Source of the DNA: Thermoplasmata archaeon
GTDB lineage: Archaea; Thermoplasmatota; Thermoplasmata; Lutacidiplasmatales; UBA184
Direction of reading: 5' to 3'
Assembly: GCA_021812305.1 (NCBI GenBank)
Contig: JAKAOB010000002.1
Location: 1 to 46,949, forward strand
Length of the DNA: 46,949 nucleotides
Of this stretch, positions 3,241 through 30,810 are shown piece by piece (position 1 is the stretch's first letter; every line of letters starts with the position of its first letter). The notes below the pieces were generated by a model. It saw nothing but the letters and a program-made list of their open reading frames with translations, made no database searches and was not told where the DNA came from. The position numbers were made by a program, and so were the translations under genes.

Positions 3241-3849
3241 TCAACCGAGGACGACGTTCGACTGGTAGTTGGTCGCGACGTACACGGTCTGGACGATCCC
3301 CGACGAGGGGAGGTAGGGGTTCTCGAAGACGAGGTAGAACGTGTCGGTGTACGGCGCGGCGAAGACGAGCGGGGCCGAGGAAGCGCCGGTGCTGTTCCAC
3401 TGCGCTACCGTCGGCTGGCCGTGGACGAACGCCACGAACTCGGAGGAATTGTACACCTGGAAGGTGAGCGACGTCCCCACCGGGCTGAGGACGGTGTAGT
3501 TGCCGTCGATGTAGTCCTCGCCGGTGATCGACCCGCTCAGGTAGGTGTAGCTCCCCGGGGCGATCGTGTAGGTCCCCCGGGTCGTGAGGGGATCGGGGAA
3601 CGTGGGCGGGCCGGCCAGGACCGCGCTCAGGATCGCGTAGGCGATGCCCACGGCGACCCCCACCACGATGAGGGAACGCACGCCTTGGCTGAGCCTCAGG
3701 TGGCGGCGCTGGCGCGCCGGCAGGCGGGGGATCTCCTCGGGGCGGACCGCGGCGCCCGTCCCGCACCTCGGGCAGACCGTCTCTCCCGGCGCGACGGTCC
3801 CCGCGCAGAAGCGGCAGGTGCGCCAGGTCGTGTCGTCCGGGTCGGTCAC
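3241..3849 (-). CDS. zinc-ribbon / single-pass membrane protein with an extracellular beta-rich domain (hypothetical)
   Basis: GTG start. CRFC...CPRC ribbon, one hydrophobic helix (LIVVGVAVGIAYAILSAVLAG), then a Tyr/Thr/Ser-rich domain with NxS/T sequons. Amino-acid composition is non-shadow-like. Confidence 0.7.
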   Translation of the reverse strand: MTDPDDTTWRTCRFCAGTVAPGETVCPRCGTGAAVRPEEIPRLPARQRRHLRLSQGVRSLIVVGVAVGIAYAILSAVLAGPPTFPDPLTTRGTYTIAPGSYTYLSGSITGEDYIDGNYTVLSPVGTSLTFQVYNSSEFVAFVHGQPTVAQWNSTGASSAPLVFAAPYTDTFYLVFENPYLPSSGIVQTVYVATNYQSNVVLG

Positions 3850-3925
3850 GGGGGCGGCGTCCCAGCCGGCACGGGGGTTTTCCCCGTTTCGTATGAACCC
3901 GGCGCCACCGCCCCACCGGCCCGGG

Positions 3926-5410
3926 CTACGCGGACCGGCGCGGCTTCGCCGCGCCGAGATTGACGAGGACGTTCTTGCGGCGGGTGAACTGGCGGACCGT
4001 GTCGGTCCCCTGCTCGAAGCCGATGCCGCTGTCCTTGAACCCGCCGAACGGCGTCTGCGGGTAGCTGTTCGGTGGTTCGTTGACCGAGACCATGCCGGCC
4101 TCGAGCTGCCGCGCGACGGTGTGCGCCCGGACCAGGTCCCGGGTCCAGAGGGCCGCGAAGAGGCCGTAGCGGGAGTCGTTCGCCAGGCGGACCGCCTCGT
4201 CGGCCTCGTCGAACTCCTGGACCGTCAGCACGGGACCGAACACCTCCTCGCGCACGATCCGGGCATCGGGCGGAGCGTCGGCGACGACCGTCGGCCGCAC
4301 GAAATTGCCCCGCGCGAGACTCGGCTCGTCGACCTTCACCCCGCCGGTCACGATCCGCGCCCCCGCTCCGCGCGCCTCCTCGATGAACCCGACGACCCGC
4401 GCCAGGTGATCGGCGGCCACGAGCGGTCCCATCTCCGTCGCCGGGTCCGTGCCGGGGCCGAGGTGGTAGGCTTCGGCGAGCGCGCGGACCTTCGCCAGCA
4501 GCTCGTCCCGCACCGGCCGCGCGACGAGCAGCCGGCTCCCCGCCCAGCACATCTGGCCGGCGTTGCCGAAGATGCCGAACGCGATCCCCTTCGCGGCCCG
4601 GTCGAGGTCCGCGTCCGGGAACACGATCACCGGGCTCTTTCCCCCGAGCTCGAGCGTGACCGGGATCACGCGTCGGCCGGCGAGCTCGGCGATCCGCTGG
4701 CCGACCTCGCCGCTGCCCGTGAAGGCGACGGAGCGGCCCCGCCGGTCGCTGACGAGCGCCTCCCCGACGTCGGTTCCGCCCCCGACGACCACGTTGAGTA
4801 TCCCGTCCGGTATCCCCGCCTCCTTCGCCAGACGGGCGAGCGCGAGCGCCGTGAGGGGGGTGGCGCTCGCCGGCTTGAGGACGGCGGCGTTGCCCGCCGC
4901 CAGGGCCGGCGCGACGGAGCGCATGGCGAGCAGGAGCGGGTAGTTCCAAGGAGCGATGTGCACCGTCACCCCGAGCGGTTCGCGCAGCGTGAAGTCGAAG
5001 CGGGGGCCCGGAACGGGGATGGTCTCCCCCTCGATCTTGTCGGCGAGACCGGCGACGTACTCGAACGTCCGCACGACGTACGCCACGTCGCCCCGCGCCT
5101 CCTTGAGCGGCTTGCCCATGTTGCGGGTCTCGAGGAGGGCGAGCGGCTCGGCGCGCTCCTCGATCAGGCGCGCCAGGCGATACAGGGTCCGCCCGCGTTT
5201 GGCGCCGTCGTCCCCCGCCCAGGCGCTCTCGCGGAACGCGCGCTCGGCGGACTCCATCGCGAACCGGGCATCGTCGGCGGTTCCGAAGGCGACGGTCGTG
5301 AGCGGATCGTTCGTCGCCGGATCGAGGAGGGTCCGCGTTCCGCCGCCGGAGGCCGGGACCTCCGCGCCGCCGATGAAGAGGTTGTAGCGGGGCTCGATGG
5401 ACGCCGACAT
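3926..5410 (-). CDS. NAD(P)-dependent aldehyde dehydrogenase family protein
   Basis: Blocks FTGSGEVGQ, LELGGKSP (catalytic Glu) and GNAGQMCWAGSRLLV (catalytic Cys). I prefer ATG 5410 (MSASIEPRYNLFIGG) because it avoids overlapping the upstream gene. Confidence 0.9.
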   Translation of the reverse strand: MSASIEPRYNLFIGGAEVPASGGGTRTLLDPATNDPLTTVAFGTADDARFAMESAERAFRESAWAGDDGAKRGRTLYRLARLIEERAEPLALLETRNMGKPLKEARGDVAYVVRTFEYVAGLADKIEGETIPVPGPRFDFTLREPLGVTVHIAPWNYPLLLAMRSVAPALAAGNAAVLKPASATPLTALALARLAKEAGIPDGILNVVVGGGTDVGEALVSDRRGRSVAFTGSGEVGQRIAELAGRRVIPVTLELGGKSPVIVFPDADLDRAAKGIAFGIFGNAGQMCWAGSRLLVARPVRDELLAKVRALAEAYHLGPGTDPATEMGPLVAADHLARVVGFIEEARGAGARIVTGGVKVDEPSLARGNFVRPTVVADAPPDARIVREEVFGPVLTVQEFDEADEAVRLANDSRYGLFAALWTRDLVRAHTVARQLEAGMVSVNEPPNSYPQTPFGGFKDSGIGFEQGTDTVRQFTRRKNVLVNLGAAKPRRSA

Positions 5411-14336: not shown

Positions 14337-14409
14337 GGGCCGGTCGTCTAGCGGTGAGGACGCCGCGCTTACAACGCGGAGATCGGCGGTTCGAATCCGT
14401 CCCGGCCCA
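14337..14409 (+). tRNA. tRNA-Val (anticodon UAC)
   Basis: I folded the cloverleaf by hand. Acceptor GGGCCGG/CCGGCCC. D-stem GUCU/GGAC. Anticodon stem CCGCG/CGCGG with loop CUUACAA. 5-nt variable loop. T-arm GGCGG-UUCGAAU-CCGUC. Discriminator A. No encoded CCA and no intron. Confidence 0.92.
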
Positions 14410-14522
14410 CTCGATCCTTGCGCTATACTACGGAGGCCCGTAAGTAGGTCCACTTCGGCTCGCCTCTCGGCCCTCTAAATATCCCCTCAGATGGCGCGGG
14501 CCAGTGGATCGCGCGGAGGCCC

Positions 14523-17123: not shown

Positions 17124-17609
17124 ATGGCAGCGCGACGATCCCTCTACCCTGCCGGCGAGATGAAGGTCGAGTTCCTTTCCTGCCCGGTCCAGGCCAGCCT
17201 CAAGGTGCTCGGTCGGGAGTGGGCCTTCCTCGTCATCACCTCCATTGCCCTCTTCCGGGCCAACCGCTACAACGACATGCTGCGCGCCATGCCCGGACTG
17301 TCGAAGCGGTTGCTCTCCCTGCGTCTGAAGGAGCTCGAGACCGCCGGCTTCATTGTTCGCGCGGAACGCCGAAGGGGATTCGTTCGTTGGGGGCTCACCG
17401 TGAAGGGCGCCGACGTGGTGCCGATTCTCCTCACGATGGTCCGGTTCGGTGCCAAGTGGTACGCCGACGAGCTCTTCGACGATCGATCTCCGCGCGCCCT
17501 GGGGGAGATCTTCGATGAGGGGTTCATTCGCAGGGCCTTCGGGATTCGACCGCGGCGAGGGCCCCGCGCGCGGGCGGGGCCGGCGAGATCCGGTGTACCC
17601 GTCGCGTAG
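17124..17609 (+). CDS. HxlR-family winged-helix transcriptional regulator
   Basis: CPVQASLKVLGREWAFLVI...RYNDMLRAMPGLSKRLLSLRLKELETAGFIVR. Divergent from the SRPBCC gene, which is a common pairing. An alternative start is ATG 17160. Confidence 0.85.
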   Translation: MAARRSLYPAGEMKVEFLSCPVQASLKVLGREWAFLVITSIALFRANRYNDMLRAMPGLSKRLLSLRLKELETAGFIVRAERRRGFVRWGLTVKGADVVPILLTMVRFGAKWYADELFDDRSPRALGEIFDEGFIRRAFGIRPRRGPRARAGPARSGVPVA

Positions 17610-17785: not shown

Positions 17786-19075
17786 CTATCCACCGGTCCC
17801 GGGGGCTCGGGCCGGTACCGACCATACCCGTGACGGCGCCGGTCCATCCGCCGAGATCGGCCATGGCGGTAGCGAGGGGTGACGGAAGACCGACCCCGGT
17901 TCGAGCCACGCCGCCAGCGCACGGCCGCCCGGCTGGGCGACGGGAAGGACCAGGCACTCGCGGAGCTGCGCCCCGCTTCCCGAGCCGGTCCAGTCGGTCC
18001 CGGGGATCATCTGGAACCGTTGGCGGGTGAGCCAGCCGATGAGCTCGAGGTCGCTTTGGCGGACGGCATACGCCTCGGGGAGGGCCACGGACCGCAGCGT
18101 CTCCACCCGGTCGTAGAGGTCCCGAATCGGCACCTGACGACGTTCGCCCGAGACCCGGTCCCGGACGGTGGCCCAGCTCGACCGGTGCGAACGAGCCCAG
18201 CGGCCCGCGATCGGCACCCGCTCTCCCGGCCGTGGCGAACCCATATCGGGGGCGTCGAGGCTCCCGCGGTGACGGGCCGCCCACCGGAGGACCGCGAGCA
18301 GCGCCCGGCGCTGCGCGGCCCGCAGCCGGGCCCGTTCCGAAAGGGCGTCCTCGGACCGGGGGGCCCGACCTTCGAGGAGCACGGTGAAGGTGTCGTAGCG
18401 CAACGCGATGGAGTTCCTGAGGTCGGGGCTGGTGAAGGAGCTCGCACGCAGGCGGCCCGACGGCTGAAACAGTCGGTACTCACCGGCCGCGTATCCTTCC
18501 CGGGCGAGCTCGCCGGAGATCTCCGGCAGGAATCCCTCCACCTCGTCGGGCGTGAGGCGGGTCCGCACCCCGGGATGGGTGGCCGTCGCGACCAGCACAT
18601 CGTCGTCCAGGACCCACCCCCGCCGTAGGGCGGCCCGCCGCCGGGACGGATAGTTGTGGAGGTCGATCACCACGTCGGGGCGCACCGTGCGCACGATGCG
18701 GTGGATCGCCCGGGTCTCCTCGGAGTCCAAGGCGATGTGGTCGCGGTTGAGGTCGACCCCGTCCCCGTTCGTCCGCGAGCCGTTCGTGAGGCCGTCCGGG
18801 TTCGCCACCGCGATCCAGCCGAACCCGATCCCGAGGCCATCGATCTCGGGCCGGTCCCGGCCCACCGCCTCGCGCAGCGACTCGATCGCCGCCGCCTCGT
18901 CCCCGTGCTGCCCGGCGACGGCGAGCACATAGGGCCGGCGCGGGTGGGGGGCCAGGGTCTCGAACCGGATCGGGGTTCCGCGGGCCGTCCGTCCGATGAC
19001 GGGCGCGCGCTCCGACCCCTGTCCGACCGGGCATCCGGGGGGAGATCTCTCGTCCGCGAGCGTTCCGGCGGTCAT
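17786..19075 (-). CDS. M14-family zinc carboxypeptidase-like protein, cytosolic, with a long C-terminal extension
   Basis: GQHGDEAA (HxxE zinc ligands), ANPDG, DLNRDH, DLHNY. No signal peptide. ATG 19075 overlaps the stop of the ABC gene (ATGA). Confidence 0.8.
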   Translation of the reverse strand: MTAGTLADERSPPGCPVGQGSERAPVIGRTARGTPIRFETLAPHPRRPYVLAVAGQHGDEAAAIESLREAVGRDRPEIDGLGIGFGWIAVANPDGLTNGSRTNGDGVDLNRDHIALDSEETRAIHRIVRTVRPDVVIDLHNYPSRRRAALRRGWVLDDDVLVATATHPGVRTRLTPDEVEGFLPEISGELAREGYAAGEYRLFQPSGRLRASSFTSPDLRNSIALRYDTFTVLLEGRAPRSEDALSERARLRAAQRRALLAVLRWAARHRGSLDAPDMGSPRPGERVPIAGRWARSHRSSWATVRDRVSGERRQVPIRDLYDRVETLRSVALPEAYAVRQSDLELIGWLTRQRFQMIPGTDWTGSGSGAQLRECLVLPVAQPGGRALAAWLEPGSVFRHPSLPPWPISADGPAPSRVWSVPARAPGTGG

Positions 19076-20889
19076 GCCGGCACCCCGCTCGGGACCTGCG
19101 GACGTTCCCGTCGGGCCTCGCGGGCGGTCGCCGCGGCCGCGGGCCCGGCCGGGCCGAGGCCGGACGGCACGACCCGCCCTTGCTCCATCACGACGACCTG
19201 GTCCGCCGCGTCCAGGATCCGGTCGGAGTGGTGGGCCACGACCAGCACGGTGAGCCGGCCCTTGAGACGCTCGAGCGTCGCGACGAGGCGCGCTTCCGCT
19301 TCCGGGTCCAACGCAGAGTTGGGCTCGTCCAGGAGGAGGATCTTCGGCCGTCGGAGGAGCGCTCGGGCGATCGCGATCCGCTGCGCCTCGCCGCCCGAGA
19401 CGTTGCCGCGGCCCGGACCGACCCGGCTCGCGAGGCCCTCGGGAAGGCGCGCCACGAGGTCGAGGACGCCCGCATCCCGGCAGGCCTCCCACAGCTCCCC
19501 CTCGGTCGCACCGGGGCGCCCCAATCGGAGGTTCTCTTCCACGGTGCCGGCGAAGAGGACCGGACGCTGCGGGACCACGGCCACCTGGGCCCGGAGGGAG
19601 GCGAGCCGCACCTGGCGCAGGTCCTGGTGGTCGATCCGTACCGAGCCGGCCGCGGGGTCGTGCAGACGGGAGAGGAGCTTCAGCAGCGTGCTCTTGCCCG
19701 AACCGTTCCGGCCCAGTACGACCGTGATCCCCCGGGGCGCGAGGTCGAGCGAGACGTCCCGAAGGACGGGGCGGGAGGCGTAGGCGAAGGAGACGTGCCG
19801 GAACTCGATCCGTCCACCGTCGATCGTCAGGTTCGGCGCGCGCGGGTCATCGACGATCGAGGAGGGGCTGTCGAGGACCTCCCGGATCCGCTCGAACGCC
19901 ACCAGCCCGCGCTGGTAGACGTTCAGCACCAACGTGAACCGCTGCATCGGCGTGTAGAGCAGCACGACGAACCCGGTGATGGCGACGAGGGTGCCGAGCG
20001 TCATCGTGCCGGCGAGCACTGCGGACCCGCCGAGCCACCACGTCAGGGCGAGCCCGAGGCTCGTGATCGCCCAGGTCGACCCCGTGATGAGGCCGCCGTA
20101 GACCTTCGCCGCGATCTGGTCGGTGGCCAGGCGGTCGCTGTCGCGCCAGAGGCGGCCCACGGCCACCGCCTCCGCGCTGGAGGTCTGGATGGTCTCGATG
20201 CCGTCCAAGTGCTCCTTGACCGAGGCGGTGAGCTGGCCCTGCGTGGTCCGGGCCACCCGCGTCGCCTCCCGAAGGCGGGCCTGGAGCCGACGGGTGATCA
20301 CGTACTGCACCGGAAGGAACGCCGCCGCGATGAGGGCGATCTCCGGGTTCAGGAGGAAGAGGATCGCCACCGGCCAGGCGACGCGCAGGACGTTCTGGAT
20401 CGTATTGAAGAACACCCGTTCGACGAACTCGCGCATCGATTGCGTGTCGACGATGATGCGATTGAGCAGCTCGCCCGGCCCGAAGCGATCGTGGACGTCG
20501 ATCGAGGAGTGGGCCAGGTGCCGGACGATCGACTTGCGGAGGTCCGCGACCGTCCGCCGGCTCAGCTCCGAGACCGAGGCGGTGCTGAGGTAGGCGGTCG
20601 CGCCGTAGGCCCCGGCCGTCAGGACCAGCCCGGCCACCGAGACGGCGAGCACCGTTCCGGGGTCGGAGATCGGGACGAGGCCGAAGAAGAGCGCTCCGTG
20701 TCCGGTGATGCCGGTGACGAGGTCGCCGGTGAGGAGGGGGACCTGCATCGGCACGATCACGAACAGGAGCGACCAGAGGAGCGCCTGGACGAGGGTGGCC
20801 CGGTGGGCGGCGAGCAGGGGGAAGACGGCACGGAGGGGCGGAGCCGCGGGGGGGGACGGGCGCCCGCGCTCGGTCACGGAGACAGGCAC
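19072..20889 (-). CDS. ABC exporter, fused permease and ATPase (MsbA/MdlB-like)
   Basis: Six-TM region, then GRNGSGKST (Walker A), VSGGEAQRIAIARAL (signature) and ILLLDEP (Walker B). The start is GTG 20889 or 20877, 14 nt after the upstream stop. Confidence 0.9.
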   Translation of the reverse strand: MPVSVTERGRPSPPAAPPLRAVFPLLAAHRATLVQALLWSLLFVIVPMQVPLLTGDLVTGITGHGALFFGLVPISDPGTVLAVSVAGLVLTAGAYGATAYLSTASVSELSRRTVADLRKSIVRHLAHSSIDVHDRFGPGELLNRIIVDTQSMREFVERVFFNTIQNVLRVAWPVAILFLLNPEIALIAAAFLPVQYVITRRLQARLREATRVARTTQGQLTASVKEHLDGIETIQTSSAEAVAVGRLWRDSDRLATDQIAAKVYGGLITGSTWAITSLGLALTWWLGGSAVLAGTMTLGTLVAITGFVVLLYTPMQRFTLVLNVYQRGLVAFERIREVLDSPSSIVDDPRAPNLTIDGGRIEFRHVSFAYASRPVLRDVSLDLAPRGITVVLGRNGSGKSTLLKLLSRLHDPAAGSVRIDHQDLRQVRLASLRAQVAVVPQRPVLFAGTVEENLRLGRPGATEGELWEACRDAGVLDLVARLPEGLASRVGPGRGNVSGGEAQRIAIARALLRRPKILLLDEPNSALDPEAEARLVATLERLKGRLTVLVVAHHSDRILDAADQVVVMEQGRVVPSGLGPAGPAAAATAREARRERPQVPSGVPA

Positions 20890-20903
20890 GGTCGGTCCGG
20901 CCC

Positions 20904-22130
20904 TCAGGCCGATGGGGCGGCGATCGGCGCGGTTCCGTCGACCCGGGCCCCGGAACGAGCGGCGGCTTGCAGGGCCGGCAGGACGGCCGCGGCGAGCTCG
21001 CGGCCGTCGTCGGCCGAGGACGCCACCGGGATCGGGGAGTGGGCGGTGAACTCGCGGACGTAGAGGGGCGCGGAGGTGAGCGCCCCCGAGACCGCCTCGG
21101 GGCGGTAGCCCCATCCGACCAGACGGTCCACGGCGGCGAGCGCACCGAGGGCGCTGTCCGCCGCCAGCAGGAGACCGCTCACGTGGTCGCGGAAGCCGGG
21201 GTCGGTGAGGATCATCTCCGTCTCCCGCTGGAGGATCCCGTCCGCGATCTCCATCACCGTCACGTCCGGGTGGGCCGCGGCGACGTCCGACAGCATCGTC
21301 CGCCACAGGTGGCGCAGCTCGTCCGCCGACGCGAGATAGGTCGAGGGAAAGCCGTAGTCGCTGAAATCGACGACCACCTCGGCCGCGGCGGCGCGCATCT
21401 CGTCCTGGTCCCGGTTGGAAACGCTCCCCGTGAGCTTGGTGGCCGCGACGTGCAATCCCCGGGTGGAGAGGGCGTGGATCAGGCGGGAGGCCACGGTCGT
21501 CTTGCCGGCGTTCATCCCGGTTCCCACCACCACCAGGAGGGGGCCCGGAGACGGCCGCCCGTCCGTCGGGCGGAACCGGAGCTCCTTGAGGTTGAGACGG
21601 TCGCCGTGCGCGTCCCTCAGGTAGCCTTCGAACACCACGGAGGTCGCCCGGGCCATCTCCCGATGGCGGCTCAGGATCGTTCCGATCATTCCGCCCGCGG
21701 TGAGCAGGCTCAGCTCCTCGAGCCCGTCGACCCGCGCCTCGTAGGCGTCGGTGGCGTAGCGGTGGCCGAAGACGCCGACGATGCGGTCGCCCTCGTAGAT
21801 CCGCAGCTTGCGGTTGTCCGCGGTCACGACGGTGGAGTGGTAGCCCAGGGACGCGATGCGGACGATCGCCAAGTCCCCGGGGCGCGGGGCGTCCGCGCCG
21901 CGCTCCGGATCCGAACGGACACCGGACGGGTCCAGGCCGCGGCAGGCCCAGGACCACTTCACGTCCGGTCCGATCGGCGCCAGCGGTCCTCGGCCCCCCG
22001 TGCGGCCGAGGCCGGGCGGCGGGTTCGGGCCGGCCGGCCCCCGCGGCCGGGGTGCGGTTCCAGTACCGCCGAGGGACGGGATCGCGTTCAGGCCAGGGAA
22101 CGGTGTGAGGGGGGTCGCGGGGGCGGCCAT
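20904..22130 (-). CDS. uncharacterised P-loop protein (BioD/CobQ/DUF1611-like nucleotide-binding domain)
   Basis: Pro/Gly-rich N-terminus, a beta-rich domain (DLAIVRIASLGYHSTVV...IYEGDRIVGVFGHRYATDAYEA), then LLVVVGTGMNAGKTTVASRLIHALSTRGLHVAATKLTGS. I recognise no specific family. Confidence 0.7.
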   Translation of the reverse strand: MAAPATPLTPFPGLNAIPSLGGTGTAPRPRGPAGPNPPPGLGRTGGRGPLAPIGPDVKWSWACRGLDPSGVRSDPERGADAPRPGDLAIVRIASLGYHSTVVTADNRKLRIYEGDRIVGVFGHRYATDAYEARVDGLEELSLLTAGGMIGTILSRHREMARATSVVFEGYLRDAHGDRLNLKELRFRPTDGRPSPGPLLVVVGTGMNAGKTTVASRLIHALSTRGLHVAATKLTGSVSNRDQDEMRAAAAEVVVDFSDYGFPSTYLASADELRHLWRTMLSDVAAAHPDVTVMEIADGILQRETEMILTDPGFRDHVSGLLLAADSALGALAAVDRLVGWGYRPEAVSGALTSAPLYVREFTAHSPIPVASSADDGRELAAAVLPALQAAARSGARVDGTAPIAAPSA

Positions 22131-22293
22131 GTTCTTCTCGAGGCCCCTTCCGCCGAGAGGGGGGTTATGGGTTTTGGCGCAACCCCCGAACTCATTGGGT
22201 CGCTCCCCGAACCGGGGGTCGTCCGGAGCCCCCGGTCCCCCGCCGTCGACGTTCCCGCCGACCCCGGCCCGGCGGGTGATGCGCCCCGCGGGC

Positions 22294-23619
22294 TCACCGA
22301 CGCACGACCCGCTCCATGAAGCGATCGAGGATCGCGGCCATGCGGCCGCCGATGTCCCGGTAGTCGTACCGCACCGTCACGATCGGAGGGGTGACACGGA
22401 TGAGCCGCTTGAGATCGACCGGGCTCCCGTCGACGACGACCTCGGGCGCCGCGCGTTCGATCGTTGCCTCCAGTTCTCGGACCTGGGCCGCACCGTAGCC
22501 CATCGCCGGCAGGACCGCGGCGAGGTGCGGATAGGCCGCGTAGACCTGGGCGATGGACCCGACCGCGAACGGTCGGGGGTCGATGACCTGGGCGCCGTGG
22601 GCCCGGGCGAAGAGCACGCCGGCGCCGAACGCCATGCCCCCGTGGGTCACCGTCGGCCCGTCCTCGATGACGAGCGCCCGCTTTCCCGCCAGCCGGTCGG
22701 CCCCGTCCGCCGAGATGTCCAGGGCCGCCCGCAATAGCTCGGCCCGGGGATTGGCCCGGGCGGCGTTCTCCTCGACGGTCCGTATGCCCTCCGCGGGAGC
22801 GGAGTCGGTCTTGCTCACGATGAGGACGTCGGCGGCGCGGAAGTTGGCCTCTCCGGGGTAGTAGGACATCTCGTGCCCGGCCCGGTGCGGGTCGGCGACG
22901 ACGATCTGGAGATCGGACGCGTAGAACGGCTGGTCGTTGTTGCCTCCGTCCCACAGGACGAGGTCGGACTCCGACTCGGCCCGGCGCAGGATCGCCTCGT
23001 AGTCGACCCCGGCGAAGACGACCGCCCCGTCGCGGAGGTGCGGCTCGTACTCCTCGCGTTCCTCGATCGTGCACTGGGCCCGGTCGAGGTCGTCGAACGT
23101 CGCGAACCGCTGGACCGCCTGCGCGGCGAGGTCCCCGTACGGCATCGGGTGCCGGACGATCGCCACGCGAAGCCCCTTGGACCTCAGATGGCGGGAGACG
23201 AACCGCGTGAGCGGGCTCTTCCCGGCGCCCGTGCGTACCGCGCAGACGCTGATCACCGGTTTGCTCGAGCGCAGGCAGGTCTCCCGCGGGCCGGCGAGGA
23301 GGAAGCTGGCACCGGCCGCTAGGGCGATCGACGCTTTGTGCATCACCTCCAGGTGCGGAAGGTCCGAGTAGGCGAGGAGGACCAGGTCGACCTGCTCGCG
23401 CCGGACGAGATCGGCGAGCTCCGCCTCGGGAACGATCGGGATGCCGCTCGGATAGCCCGGCCCGGCCAGCGCCGGAGGATAGGCTCGGCCGGCGATGTTC
23501 GGGATCTGGGCGGCGGTGAAGGCGACCACCTCGTACTCCGGCCGGTTCCGGTAGAGGACGTTGAAGTTGTGGAAGTCCCGGCCCGCCGCCCCCACGATGA
23601 CGACCCGACGACGCGACAT
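22294..23619 (-). CDS. cyclic 2,3-diphosphoglycerate synthetase-like protein (COG2403 'predicted GTPase' family)
   Basis: Blocks GAAGRDFHNFN, AVRTGAGKS, VRHPMPYGD, CTIEEREEYEPH and WDGGNND match my recollection of this family. I prefer ATG 23619 (MSRRRVVIVG), which has a TATA box 25-31 nt upstream. Confidence 0.75.
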   Translation of the reverse strand: MSRRRVVIVGAAGRDFHNFNVLYRNRPEYEVVAFTAAQIPNIAGRAYPPALAGPGYPSGIPIVPEAELADLVRREQVDLVLLAYSDLPHLEVMHKASIALAAGASFLLAGPRETCLRSSKPVISVCAVRTGAGKSPLTRFVSRHLRSKGLRVAIVRHPMPYGDLAAQAVQRFATFDDLDRAQCTIEEREEYEPHLRDGAVVFAGVDYEAILRRAESESDLVLWDGGNNDQPFYASDLQIVVADPHRAGHEMSYYPGEANFRAADVLIVSKTDSAPAEGIRTVEENAARANPRAELLRAALDISADGADRLAGKRALVIEDGPTVTHGGMAFGAGVLFARAHGAQVIDPRPFAVGSIAQVYAAYPHLAAVLPAMGYGAAQVRELEATIERAAPEVVVDGSPVDLKRLIRVTPPIVTVRYDYRDIGGRMAAILDRFMERVVRR

Positions 23620-23625
23620 GCCCTT

Positions 23626-23643
23626 CCGTTCCCTTGGGAACGG
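23626..23643. promoter_or_regulatory. perfect palindrome (candidate operator) between the TATA box and the start of the COG2403 operon
   Basis: CCGTTCCC-TT-GGGAACGG, located 7-24 nt upstream of ATG 23619 and directly abutting the TATA-like element. Confidence 0.5.
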
Positions 23644-23650
23644 TATAGGC
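23644..23650 (-). promoter_or_regulatory. TATA-like box for the COG2403 operon
   Basis: GCCTATA on the minus strand, 25-31 nt upstream of ATG 23619. Confidence 0.45.
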
Positions 23651-23816
23651 TCGCCGTCAAATAGCGAGCGCCGAACCGGGCTCAACGGCCCCGCTGGGTC
23701 CGCGGAGGTGCCTCACGGGGGTGCCCCGTGCTATCTCGCAACGAGCCGACCCGTCAATCCGGCTTGACGCGCACGCTATGAACCCGGCTCGGACACGGGA
23801 GGGCTGAGGTAGGCCC

Positions 23817-24509
23817 ATGTCGTCGACCCCAGCCCACCGGCTGTCTCCCCTCGATGAGGCCCCGCCCCCCGCCTATCGCTCCCGGAGCGATGGGCCGCGG
23901 GGTCTGCTGCCCCGGGGGGTCTACGCCGTCCTGATCGGCGCCTCGTTGGTGTGGATGGCCAGCGCGGCCGTGCTCGGCCTTGGTGTCTCCCTGCCGAGCC
24001 TGCCGTCCTCGACCGGTTCGGGGGGAGGCAGCTCCACCGTCGACTACCTGTACCTCACCATCGCGTTCAACCCCCTCAACGGGATGGACGAGTACTTCCC
24101 CGCGAACTTCACCGTCCCCGCCCACGCCGCGGTGGTCGTCACGATCACCAACTACGACAACGGCACCAACCTCGTGCCGTCGCAGTACGGCCAGGTCGTG
24201 GGGACCGCCGGCGGAACCGCCCTGGTCTCCGATCCGGTGACCGGCCAGGTCGCCACCGTGACGAGCGTTCCGCTCGCGGAGATCGCGCACACCTTTACGC
24301 TGCCCACCCTCGGCGGGTCCGGAGCGTCCGGCACCCCGGCCGTCAACGTCCCGATCCCGGCGGCGGCATCGGGCCTCGAGCCGACCCAGGTGACGTTCAC
24401 CCTTCACATCGGCGCGGCCGGTTCGTACACGTGGATGTGCATGGCCCCGTGCGACCCGGGCTCCATGACCACCCCGGGCTTCATGACCGGCACGCTGGAC
24501 GTGGAGTAG
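23817..24509 (+). CDS. membrane-anchored cupredoxin-like protein
   Basis: One TM helix, a Ser/Gly linker, then YLYLTIAFNP...FTVPAHAAVVVTITNYD...HTFTL...YTWMCMAPCD...GFMTGTLDV. This is a cupredoxin-type beta sandwich, but the usual C-P-H copper ligand His is missing. A GAGGT Shine-Dalgarno-like element lies about 10 nt upstream. Confidence 0.7.
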   Translation: MSSTPAHRLSPLDEAPPPAYRSRSDGPRGLLPRGVYAVLIGASLVWMASAAVLGLGVSLPSLPSSTGSGGGSSTVDYLYLTIAFNPLNGMDEYFPANFTVPAHAAVVVTITNYDNGTNLVPSQYGQVVGTAGGTALVSDPVTGQVATVTSVPLAEIAHTFTLPTLGGSGASGTPAVNVPIPAAASGLEPTQVTFTLHIGAAGSYTWMCMAPCDPGSMTTPGFMTGTLDVE

Positions 24510-30066: not shown

Positions 30067-30810
30067 ATGCCGAACGACGGCGAACCCGACTACGTCGAGC
30101 CGATCCTCGGGATCGTCTTCGACCTGGACGGGACGCTCGTCGTGAGCCGCCACGACTTCGACCGCATGCGCCGGGAGGTCATCGCGACGGCCGTCCGCCA
30201 CGGGGCCGATCCCGGCGCCCTGTCGCCGAAGGAGCCGGTCGCCCGCCTCTTCGAGGCGGTCCGCTCCGATCTGACCTCGCGCGGGAGGCCCGAGGGCGAC
30301 CTCTACCGGTTCGAGGCCGAGGCGAACCGGGCGATCGACGCGATCGAGATGGAGGCACTGCCGCGGACGACGGTGCGCGACGGCGCCGCGCCCCTCCTCG
30401 CCCACCTCTCCGAGCGCGGATACCGTCTCGGCCTTCTCACCCGCAGCGCCGAGCCGTTCGTGCGCGCCGCCCTCGCCCGGACCTCGCTCGCCGAGTACTT
30501 CCCGTACCTCCGGACCCGCAGCGCCCCGGGGCCGGCCAAACCGTCGCCCGAGGCGCTGTTCCTTCTCCTGAGCGAGATGGGGGTTCCCCCGGACCGCGCC
30601 CTGTTCGTCGGGGACCACCTGATCGATGCCGAGTGCGCGACGCGGGCCCGCGTCCACTTCTACGCGCTGCTGCCGGTGCCGGGCGACGACAACGGGATGA
30701 CGCGCGAGCGGTTCCTCGCCGCCGGGGCCGCCGCCGTCGCCGAGGACCTCCCGGACCTCGGCCGCATGCTCGGTCTCCCGGCGCGGGGCCCGTCCGCGCG
30801 GCCGGCCTGA
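30067..30810 (+). CDS. HAD-superfamily phosphatase
   Basis: IVFDLDGTLV (motif I), LGLLTRS (motif II) and FVGDHLIDAE (motif IV). I prefer ATG 30067; the track ORF begins at GTG 30007. Confidence 0.8.
   Translation: MPNDGEPDYVEPILGIVFDLDGTLVVSRHDFDRMRREVIATAVRHGADPGALSPKEPVARLFEAVRSDLTSRGRPEGDLYRFEAEANRAIDAIEMEALPRTTVRDGAAPLLAHLSERGYRLGLLTRSAEPFVRAALARTSLAEYFPYLRTRSAPGPAKPSPEALFLLLSEMGVPPDRALFVGDHLIDAECATRARVHFYALLPVPGDDNGMTRERFLAAGAAAVAEDLPDLGRMLGLPARGPSARPA

Follow-up and report, generated by a model that had tools for sequence, protein, structure and literature searches.

Enzymes of the BioD/CobQ class form amide or ureido bonds after activating the oxygen of a carboxylate or carbonyl group with ATP. 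The targets of MpaA, bacterial CCP-like M14 enzymes, and the AstE/AspA deacylases, the nearest characterised relatives of the M14 protein described below, are gamma-linked or N-acyl bonds at Glu, Asp, or diaminopimelic acid (Dap). A P-loop protein of the BioD/CobQ type and an M14 enzyme are encoded together with an ABC exporter in the stretch of Thermoplasmata archaeon DNA analysed here (46,949 nt of contig JAKAOB010000002.1, hereafter the window; 72% GC). The three genes, which together with an upstream element occupy positions 17786-22199 on the minus strand, very probably form an operon with its own promoter, independent of the adjacent gene for a cyclic 2,3-diphosphoglycerate synthetase-like protein (cDPGS-like, COG2403). 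A previous sequence-only reading had grouped all four genes into one tightly coupled operon. This view holds for the P-loop, exporter, and M14 genes, but the cDPGS-like gene has to be removed from the unit, as it is separated from the others by 163 nt containing a conserved promoter-like element and is not linked to them in any of the 68 related loci compared.

All four genes are encoded on the minus strand. The cDPGS-like gene (441 aa) extends from an ATG at 23619 to a TGA at 22294; a TTG at 23685 in the list of open reading frames (ORFs) is a mere upstream extension of this ORF. The P-loop gene (408 aa) starts with an ATG at 22130 and ends with a TGA at 20904, only 14 nt before the GTG (20889) of the ABC exporter gene (605 aa, TGA at 19072). 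The start codon of the M14 gene (429 aa, ATG at 19075, ending at 17786) overlaps the exporter stop codon in an ATGA (19075-19072). The four minus-strand genes, the 14-nt gap, and the ATGA overlap, along with a palindrome upstream of the cDPGS-like gene and an AT-rich patch upstream of the P-loop gene, had been correctly described before.

For the neighbourhood comparison, the 68 loci were fetched from species-representative genomes using a profile of the P-loop protein, and those with at least 3.5 kb of sequence 3' of the P-loop gene (n = 48) were considered informative. In 38 of these 48 loci, the P-loop, exporter, and M14 genes follow each other in this order on one strand. The other ten, most of which contain more distant P-loop homologues, have only the exporter (n = 3), only the M14 gene (n = 3), or neither (n = 4). 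Accordingly, there are P-loop and M14 pairs without an exporter (L046, L047, and L058) and P-loop and ABC pairs without an M14 gene (L051-L053). The conservation of synteny in relatives, proposed earlier as a check of the four-gene arrangement, is thus found for genes two to four but in no case for the cDPGS-like gene and the cassette. The loci nearest to the window cassette are also from Thermoplasmata. The three genes are nearly gapless in the AT-rich genomes of Nitrosopumilus, which have few spurious ORFs, and neighbouring cassette genes overlap by 4 nt in Nitrososphaera evergladensis and in L071. Moreover, the identities of the three cassette proteins to those in the window co-vary among loci (Spearman 0.33-0.56). 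Co-transcription of the three genes would be in line with the 14-nt gap, the ATGA overlap, and the conserved upstream element, all of which support it indirectly.

This upstream element, a promoter- or operator-like sequence at 22165-22199 on the minus strand, is conserved in nine Thermoplasmata loci with the consensus CCAA-n3-GTTC-n8-GCRCCAAAAnCGATAC, followed by a run of C. It ends approximately 30-35 nt 5' of the P-loop ATG. The AT-rich patch at 22164-22175, located in the 163-nt gap and previously regarded as a second, weak signal of its own, is real but falls within this element. In the nine loci, the element is found at a fixed distance from the start codon with diverged flanks and regardless of the gene upstream. 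Its two-part pattern occurs once in the window, with zero occurrences expected, and across the fetched loci it is present solely 5' of P-loop genes. The constant distance supports the ATG at 22130 as the start of the P-loop gene, so that the first ~56 proline- and glycine-rich residues are probably translated, though variable and predicted to be disordered. The element has no match in Rfam, and no Rfam family was detected in the window between 17000 and 24200. It may combine an archaeal promoter of the BRE/TATA type (B recognition element and TATA box) with a repeated GCRCCAA half-site for a regulator. No terminator was recognisable in the 163-nt gap. Scans for sigma-70 promoters and intrinsic terminators were uninformative on this archaeal sequence with 72% GC.

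Several regulator genes are found near cassettes. A tandem winged-helix regulator (PF24266, ~174 aa) is encoded directly 3' of the M14 gene in Thermoplasmata relatives, including L071 (6041-6565, minus strand), L001 (12131-12646, minus), L003 (13023-13544, plus), L005 (12926-13447, plus), and L022 (13063-13578, plus), and may bind the GCRCCAA boxes, which are repeated. This regulator gene is missing from the window, where 3' of the M14 gene lies a convergent HxlR gene (17124-17609, plus strand). ArsR-like regulators are encoded beside Nitrosopumilus cassettes (L008 2259-2624 and L015 4610-4948). In N. evergladensis (L073, CP007174), genes for a DtxR-type iron-dependent repressor and a ferritin (3688-4880) are located 3-4 kb 5' of the cassette, and a closely related metagenomic contig (L074) likewise has the ferritin gene, but not that of the repressor, 5' of its cassette. 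This neighbourhood is a weak hint at a connection to metals.

Judged from its genomic context, the cDPGS-like gene appears to be an unrelated backbone gene that was brought beside the cassette by rearrangement. No homologue is encoded within 8 kb of the cassette in any of the 68 related loci (0/68), and the closest cassette homologue (L071, 65% identity) has a divergent, unrelated gene upstream instead. Conversely, in the closest relative of the window genome, GCA_027315455.1 (L075), an 89%-identical orthologue occurs without the cassette. Its upstream neighbours are the same as in the window, comprising genes for a HAD hydrolase, a methylase, a response regulator, a CBS protein, a PAS kinase, and a 230-aa protein, and the nucleotide similarity between both regions spans window positions 30683 to 22287. 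It thus ends 7 nt past the stop codon of the cDPGS-like gene, and in L075 a PhoU/Pst operon follows in place of the cassette. In the metagenome-assembled genome JAKAWX, the cDPGS-like gene and the cassette are present on separate contigs. The palindrome CGTTCCCAAGGGAACG (23627-23642, minus strand), located directly 5' of the cDPGS-like gene, had been described as operator-like. Although present in the window, it is absent from L075 despite the 89% identity of the gene product there, and the idea of a conserved operator was rejected for this reason. The GCTATTTGACGG and CTATACC boxes in the same region (23627-23665, minus strand) are conserved in L075 and are therefore likelier to represent the promoter.

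The family of the cDPGS-like protein has more than 8000 matches, shows 70-89% identity within the Thermoplasmata, and is labelled "predicted GTPase" or, by NCBI, "cyclic 2,3-diphosphoglycerate synthase". This "predicted GTPase" family has no Pfam model and, to our knowledge, no known function outside methanogens. Solved cDPG synthetases match the window protein with E 0.006 as a single sequence and E 1e-6 with the family profile. Both belong to the COG2403-type superfamily. The match is collinear, but it is remote and consists of two partial stretches in which only ~190 of 441 residues align, so that there is no close full-length similarity to a characterised enzyme. Within 10 kb to the left and right, no gene with a Pfam annotation suggests a 2-phosphoglycerate kinase partner. 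As the family is abundant and extremely conserved in Thermoplasmata, it may merit its own study. A 230-aa ORF (23817-24509, plus strand), which is transcribed away from the cDPGS-like gene and occupies the equivalent position in L075, has no Pfam match and contains a C-terminal Cys-x3-Cys stretch (YTWMCMAPCDPG).

Cassette carriers are found among archaea and bacteria of approximately 12 phyla. In addition to Thermoplasmata, the archaeal carriers include Nitrososphaerota (Nitrososphaera, Nitrosopumilus, Nitrosotalea, and Nitrosocosmicus), while the bacterial ones belong to Acidobacteriota (Bryobacterales, Blastocatellia, and Terriglobia), Planctomycetota, Desulfobacterota, Verrucomicrobiota, Chloroflexota, Gemmatimonadota, Actinomycetota, and others. 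The cassette is apparently a mobile operon that has been exchanged between archaea and bacteria. Flanking repeats as signs of mobility were not found in the window, and a tblastn search of the P-loop protein against PLSDB returned no plasmid copies. A tRNA-Val gene is located at 14337-14410 (plus strand), 3.4 kb past the M14 gene. Given this gene and the end of synteny at 22287, the region from ~14.4 to 22.3 kb could be an inserted island. Neither the P-loop nor the M14 protein matched a defence-system model in PADLOC, where the matches of the ABC protein were to generic ATPases only, and a published description of the three-gene module was not found in the literature. In the libraries and literature searched, no description exists of the P-loop family, of the M14 subfamily that carries the C-terminal domain, or of the entire module, whereas their building blocks belong to known superfamilies. 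The earlier statement that the genes match no known pathway is consistent with this result for genes two to four across Pfam, NCBIfam, PADLOC, and the literature.

The P-loop protein belongs to the BioD/CobQ class of SIMIBI proteins by fold and motifs, as proposed earlier, and represents a well-conserved family without a Pfam or NCBIfam model. It has more than 300 homologues with 45-68% identity in archaea and bacteria, and among clusters at 50% identity, at least 452 representatives match with E<1e-30 and 1165 with E<1e-10. Homologues are named only "hypothetical" or "DUF1611 domain-containing". All Pfam and NCBIfam matches of the protein are below the cut-offs and limited to ~50 residues at the P-loop (AAA_26, 21.0 vs. 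27; CbiA, 21.0 vs. 25.4; TIGR00347 (bioD), 16.6 vs. 83.3), and the relationship to BioD/CobQ is therefore one at the superfamily level. In the AlphaFold2 (AF2) model (mean predicted local distance difference test (pLDDT) 85.5), a beta-rich domain (residues ~58-172) precedes the SIMIBI domain (~198-392). The best Foldseek matches are dethiobiotin synthetases (E 7e-6), followed by signal recognition particle (SRP) GTPases and HypB. The P-loop G203-T-G-M-N-A-G-K210-T-T, corresponding to the GxxxxGK[ST] pattern at the end of strand 1, is invariant in 20 homologues. In the family profile, GTGMNAGKTT and K232 align with the P-loop of BioD and the Lys after strand 2; the invariant K232, located in ACKLTGS, aligns with VCKP of Mycobacterium tuberculosis BioD, in which we take the corresponding Lys to be Lys37. 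D255 and E294 (in MEIADG) are likewise invariant and positioned where strands 3 and 4 end. In total, ~70 residues of the protein are invariant, and many of these are polar and distributed across both domains, which suggests an enzyme rather than a switch. No NKxD motif, deviant Walker A lysine, or conserved Cys/His cluster is found in the alignment of the homologues.

The first ~56 residues of the P-loop protein (window 21963-22130, minus strand), which are proline- and glycine-rich and predicted to be disordered (residues 1-46 as the disordered N-terminus of the domain layout), are unconserved. Extensions of similar length are present in other Thermoplasmata homologues, and the proteins of Nitrosopumilus and many bacteria begin only ~15-25 residues ahead of the conserved KWSWACR motif. 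In some distant members (P0365, P0433, P0444, P0450, and P0475), this motif is replaced by AFTTRR, and the proteins are fused to other regions, among them a response-regulator receiver domain, a fragment resembling the N-terminal part of Mutator-family transposases, and an alpha/beta-hydrolase-like C-terminus (recognised by eye only). These fusions, including the unannotated extensions, provide no functional clue among the distant homologues.

By motifs and fold, the third cassette protein belongs to peptidase family M14. H57 and E60 (HxxE), R101, N110-R111, H140, and E235 are invariant in 24 M14 homologues, the zinc-binding HxxE and second His and the NR motif, which binds the substrate carboxylate, align with structures of MpaA and CCP-like enzymes, and E235 is likely the catalytic Glu as judged by pattern and fold only. 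The AF2 model (pLDDT 88.7) has a carboxypeptidase fold, with Foldseek matches to carboxypeptidase T, bacterial CCP, and MpaA at E ~1e-9 to 1e-7. AstE_AspA_cat is the best Pfam model (25.3 bits vs. a cut-off of 25), while in sequence the protein is closest to MpaA and to CCP-like enzymes of bacteria. The protein scores only 37 bits against the MpaA equivalog NF007897 (cut-off 157) and is encoded by an archaeal host; MpaA is a murein tripeptide amidase, and archaea are not known to have murein. An additional C-terminal region is indeed present, but it comprises ~150 aa (residues ~286-429 of 429) instead of the ~250 aa proposed earlier, and contains the conserved motifs LPxAYAVP and GGRxLAxxLEPxS. 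Profile-profile comparison showed this domain to be unrelated to the N-terminal domain of the P-loop protein. No hydrophobic stretch indicative of a signal peptide was seen at the N-terminus by eye.

The exporter is a generic ABCB/MsbA-type half-transporter, in agreement with its earlier designation as MsbA-like. It consists of a six-helix transmembrane domain and a nucleotide-binding domain (Pfam ABC_membrane and ABC_tran, E ~1e-31), and its matches in the PDB are generic ABCB exporters. The top NCBIfam match is MsbA (TIGR02203), with 327 bits vs. a cut-off of 602, which places the protein outside the MsbA family itself. No C39 peptidase domain was detected with Pfam.

Extended versions of the cassette are found in 22 bacterial loci, in which extra genes are inserted between the exporter and M14 genes or located 3' of the latter. 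These encode a ~170-aa single-pass membrane-anchored protein, followed by an HTTM protein that is either joined to a DCC1-like thiol-disulfide oxidoreductase or encoded beside one (L009 12143-13962, L013 12140-15309, L014 10814-12767, L051 10883-12333, and 18 further bacterial loci). Some bacterial cassettes additionally encode an M48 protease. In Pfam scans of the individual members, the polytopic accessory protein was identified as HTTM in 6 of 14 (best E 3.7e-12). It has no sequence match in the PDB, either with single sequences or with a profile, and the small membrane partner is not detectably DUF5819. NCBIfam provided no names for the HTTM, DCC, and small membrane proteins, and only the M48 protease had sub-threshold matches. 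A 2026 preprint describes the pairing of a single-pass DUF5819 protein with HTTM-DCC1 and regards it as the split equivalent of GGCX and MloH, two vitamin-K-dependent carboxylases; HTTM-fold carboxylases act on Glu (GGCX) or Asp (MloH) residues (10.64898/2026.08.19.745780).

Overall, the best explanation for the cassette may be that of a self-contained operon for the synthesis, trimming or recycling, and export of a small acidic amide-linked compound, an interpretation to which we give slightly less than even confidence. Building on the observed gene structure, synteny, promoter element, folds, and catalytic motifs, we infer a mechanism whose reaction chemistry, substrate, and direction of transport are more tentative still. 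The P-loop enzyme would activate a carboxylate with ATP and build an unusual amide- or ureido-linked compound containing an acidic amino acid. The M14 enzyme would hydrolyse such a bond, either maturing the product or recycling or limiting it inside the cell, and the ABCB exporter, which is of the homodimer type, would release the product to the outside. An acidic, non-standard amide is expected because the bonds attacked by the nearest relatives of the M14 enzyme are all gamma-linked or N-acyl and involve acidic or diamino acids. The P-loop and M14 pairs without an exporter, together with the bacterial homologues of Glu/Asp carboxylases, are consistent with a synthetase/hydrolase core acting on an acidic compound.

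Several points weigh against this interpretation. The idea of an acidic substrate is based on the activities of the nearest relatives and on conserved Arg residues, and an outward direction of transport, as opposed to import or flipping, is presumed only on the basis of the exporter type. The likeness of the P-loop protein to BioD is at the superfamily level only, with TM-scores of 0.53-0.60 over the P-loop domain, and neither its N-terminal beta domain nor the C-terminal domain of the M14 protein had any structural match in Foldseek. The HTTM genes are absent from the cassettes of the window and of other archaea. Finally, read-through from the upstream cDPGS-like gene into the cassette could occur.

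Alternatively, the cassette may be involved in the production of a ribosomally synthesised and post-translationally modified peptide (RiPP), with the P-loop enzyme modifying a peptide encoded elsewhere, the M14 enzyme trimming a C-terminal follower, and the exporter secreting the product. The logic of the trio would resemble that of McjB/C/D, and the bacterial cassettes add HTTM-DCC1 and sometimes an M48 protease, with HTTM enzymes acting on peptide-bound Glu or Asp. We nevertheless consider this unlikely. A small ORF 5' of the P-loop gene is not conserved across loci, with matches between close relatives only, the compact AT-rich operons of Nitrosopumilus contain no candidate precursor, and the exporter lacks a C39 peptidase domain. 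The high conservation of the P-loop enzyme across domains of life is also more easily reconciled with one fixed small substrate than with peptides that vary. A role in resistance or detoxification, in which the M14 enzyme would hydrolyse an imported peptide-like toxin, the P-loop enzyme phosphorylate or otherwise inactivate the warhead, and the exporter expel the product, is similarly doubtful. Self-resistance commonly involves ABCB exporters, winged-helix regulators often adjoin the cassette, and horizontal transfer is suggested by the patchy distribution over ~12 phyla of soil and sediment organisms; in the window genome, the cassette is also located at a synteny break. However, the searches of PADLOC (P-loop and M14 proteins) and PLSDB were negative, proteins of the BioD-like class are ligases and not small-molecule kinases, and P-loop and M14 pairs exist without an exporter.

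It is improbable that the P-loop protein is an accessory factor, either as an NTP-dependent metallochaperone that inserts zinc into the M14 enzyme or as a regulator of the exporter. Many SIMIBI proteins do act as switches or metallochaperones, the fold matches also include HypB and SRP GTPases, and a receiver domain is fused to some of the distant homologues. Yet the protein has no NKxD motif, deviant Walker A lysine, or conserved Cys/His metal site, it has the Lys after strand 2 that typifies BioD/CobQ, its beta domain contains many invariant polar residues, and P-loop and ABC pairs exist without an M14 gene. Least probable is a pathway of all four genes for making and exporting a phosphorylated or amide-linked solute. 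Their adjacency on one strand and the lack of a recognisable terminator in the 163-nt gap would suit such a pathway, but it is contradicted by the absence of the cDPGS-like gene near the cassette in all 68 loci and beside the closest cassette homologue, by the closest relative retaining this gene and its upstream neighbours without the cassette, by the separate contigs in JAKAWX, and by the conserved promoter-like element between both. As the previously proposed phosphorylated solute rested on the cDPGS-like gene, which is not part of the unit, this idea has lost its basis.

If the preferred interpretation as a three-gene operon for an exported acidic amide is followed further, the P-loop protein could be the founding member of a new class of ligases that form amide or ureido bonds at the expense of ATP. 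With the dedicated M14 amidase and the exporter, it would produce and secrete an acidic metabolite, such as a small peptide-like compound that binds metals or is redox-active, common to ammonia-oxidising archaea, Thermoplasmata, Acidobacteriota, and Planctomycetota, and further modified in bacteria by a split vitamin-K-type carboxylase. This extended scenario is speculative, and we regard it as rather unlikely in its entirety. The P-loop anchor family is nearly always linked to the exporter and the peptidase, yet has no Pfam or NCBIfam model, and its carriers include environmentally dominant groups with almost unknown secreted metabolites, among them Bryobacterales, Pirellulales, and the ammonia oxidisers of soils and the sea. 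Elucidation of the product would define a new enzyme activity and might bring to light a new exported compound of importance for metal, redox, or interspecies biology. The comparison also corrects a plausible but wrong operon call, with the cDPGS-like gene being an independent, highly conserved gene of the Thermoplasmata.

Compared to described systems, each part of the cassette combines familiar and distinct features. The P-loop protein shares the P-loop fold, the GTGxxxGKT motif, the Lys after strand 2, and the acidic ends of strands 3 and 4 with BioD and the SIMIBI amidoligases of the CobQ/CobB/CTP-synthase type, but differs by its low identity to these (14-21%), the additional conserved beta-rich N-terminal domain of ~115 aa, and a gene context without biotin or cobalamin genes. 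Its similarity to DUF1611 (PF07755), by which some homologues are annotated, is a weak match of 18.1 bits over 42 residues that covers only the P-loop and is below the cut-off of 25 bits. The N-terminal domain is predicted to be all-beta, no DUF1611 structure is among the 50 best fold matches of the model, and neither DUF1611_C above the cut-off nor the corresponding N-terminal domain was found. The M14 protein resembles MpaA, the bacterial CCP-like enzymes, and AstE/AspA in its fold, the HxxE, NR, and second zinc His motifs, and its presumed cytosolic location, while the conserved and unmatched ~150-aa C-terminal domain and the low score against the MpaA equivalog (37 vs. 157 bits) set it apart. 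In the bacterial cassettes, a small membrane protein preceding HTTM-DCC1 reproduces the arrangement of the split vitamin-K-type carboxylase pairs, differing in the small partner, which is not recognisable as DUF5819. As a whole, the cassette is reminiscent of lasso-peptide clusters, in which an ATP-dependent amide-forming enzyme (the lactam synthetase McjC), a peptidase (McjB), and an ABCB exporter (McjD) are likewise encoded in one operon. The protein families are unrelated, however, and no precursor peptide gene was found in or beside the cassette, so that this resemblance is one of analogy between an established peptide pathway and a module that joins a BioD/CobQ-class protein, an M14 enzyme, and an exporter.

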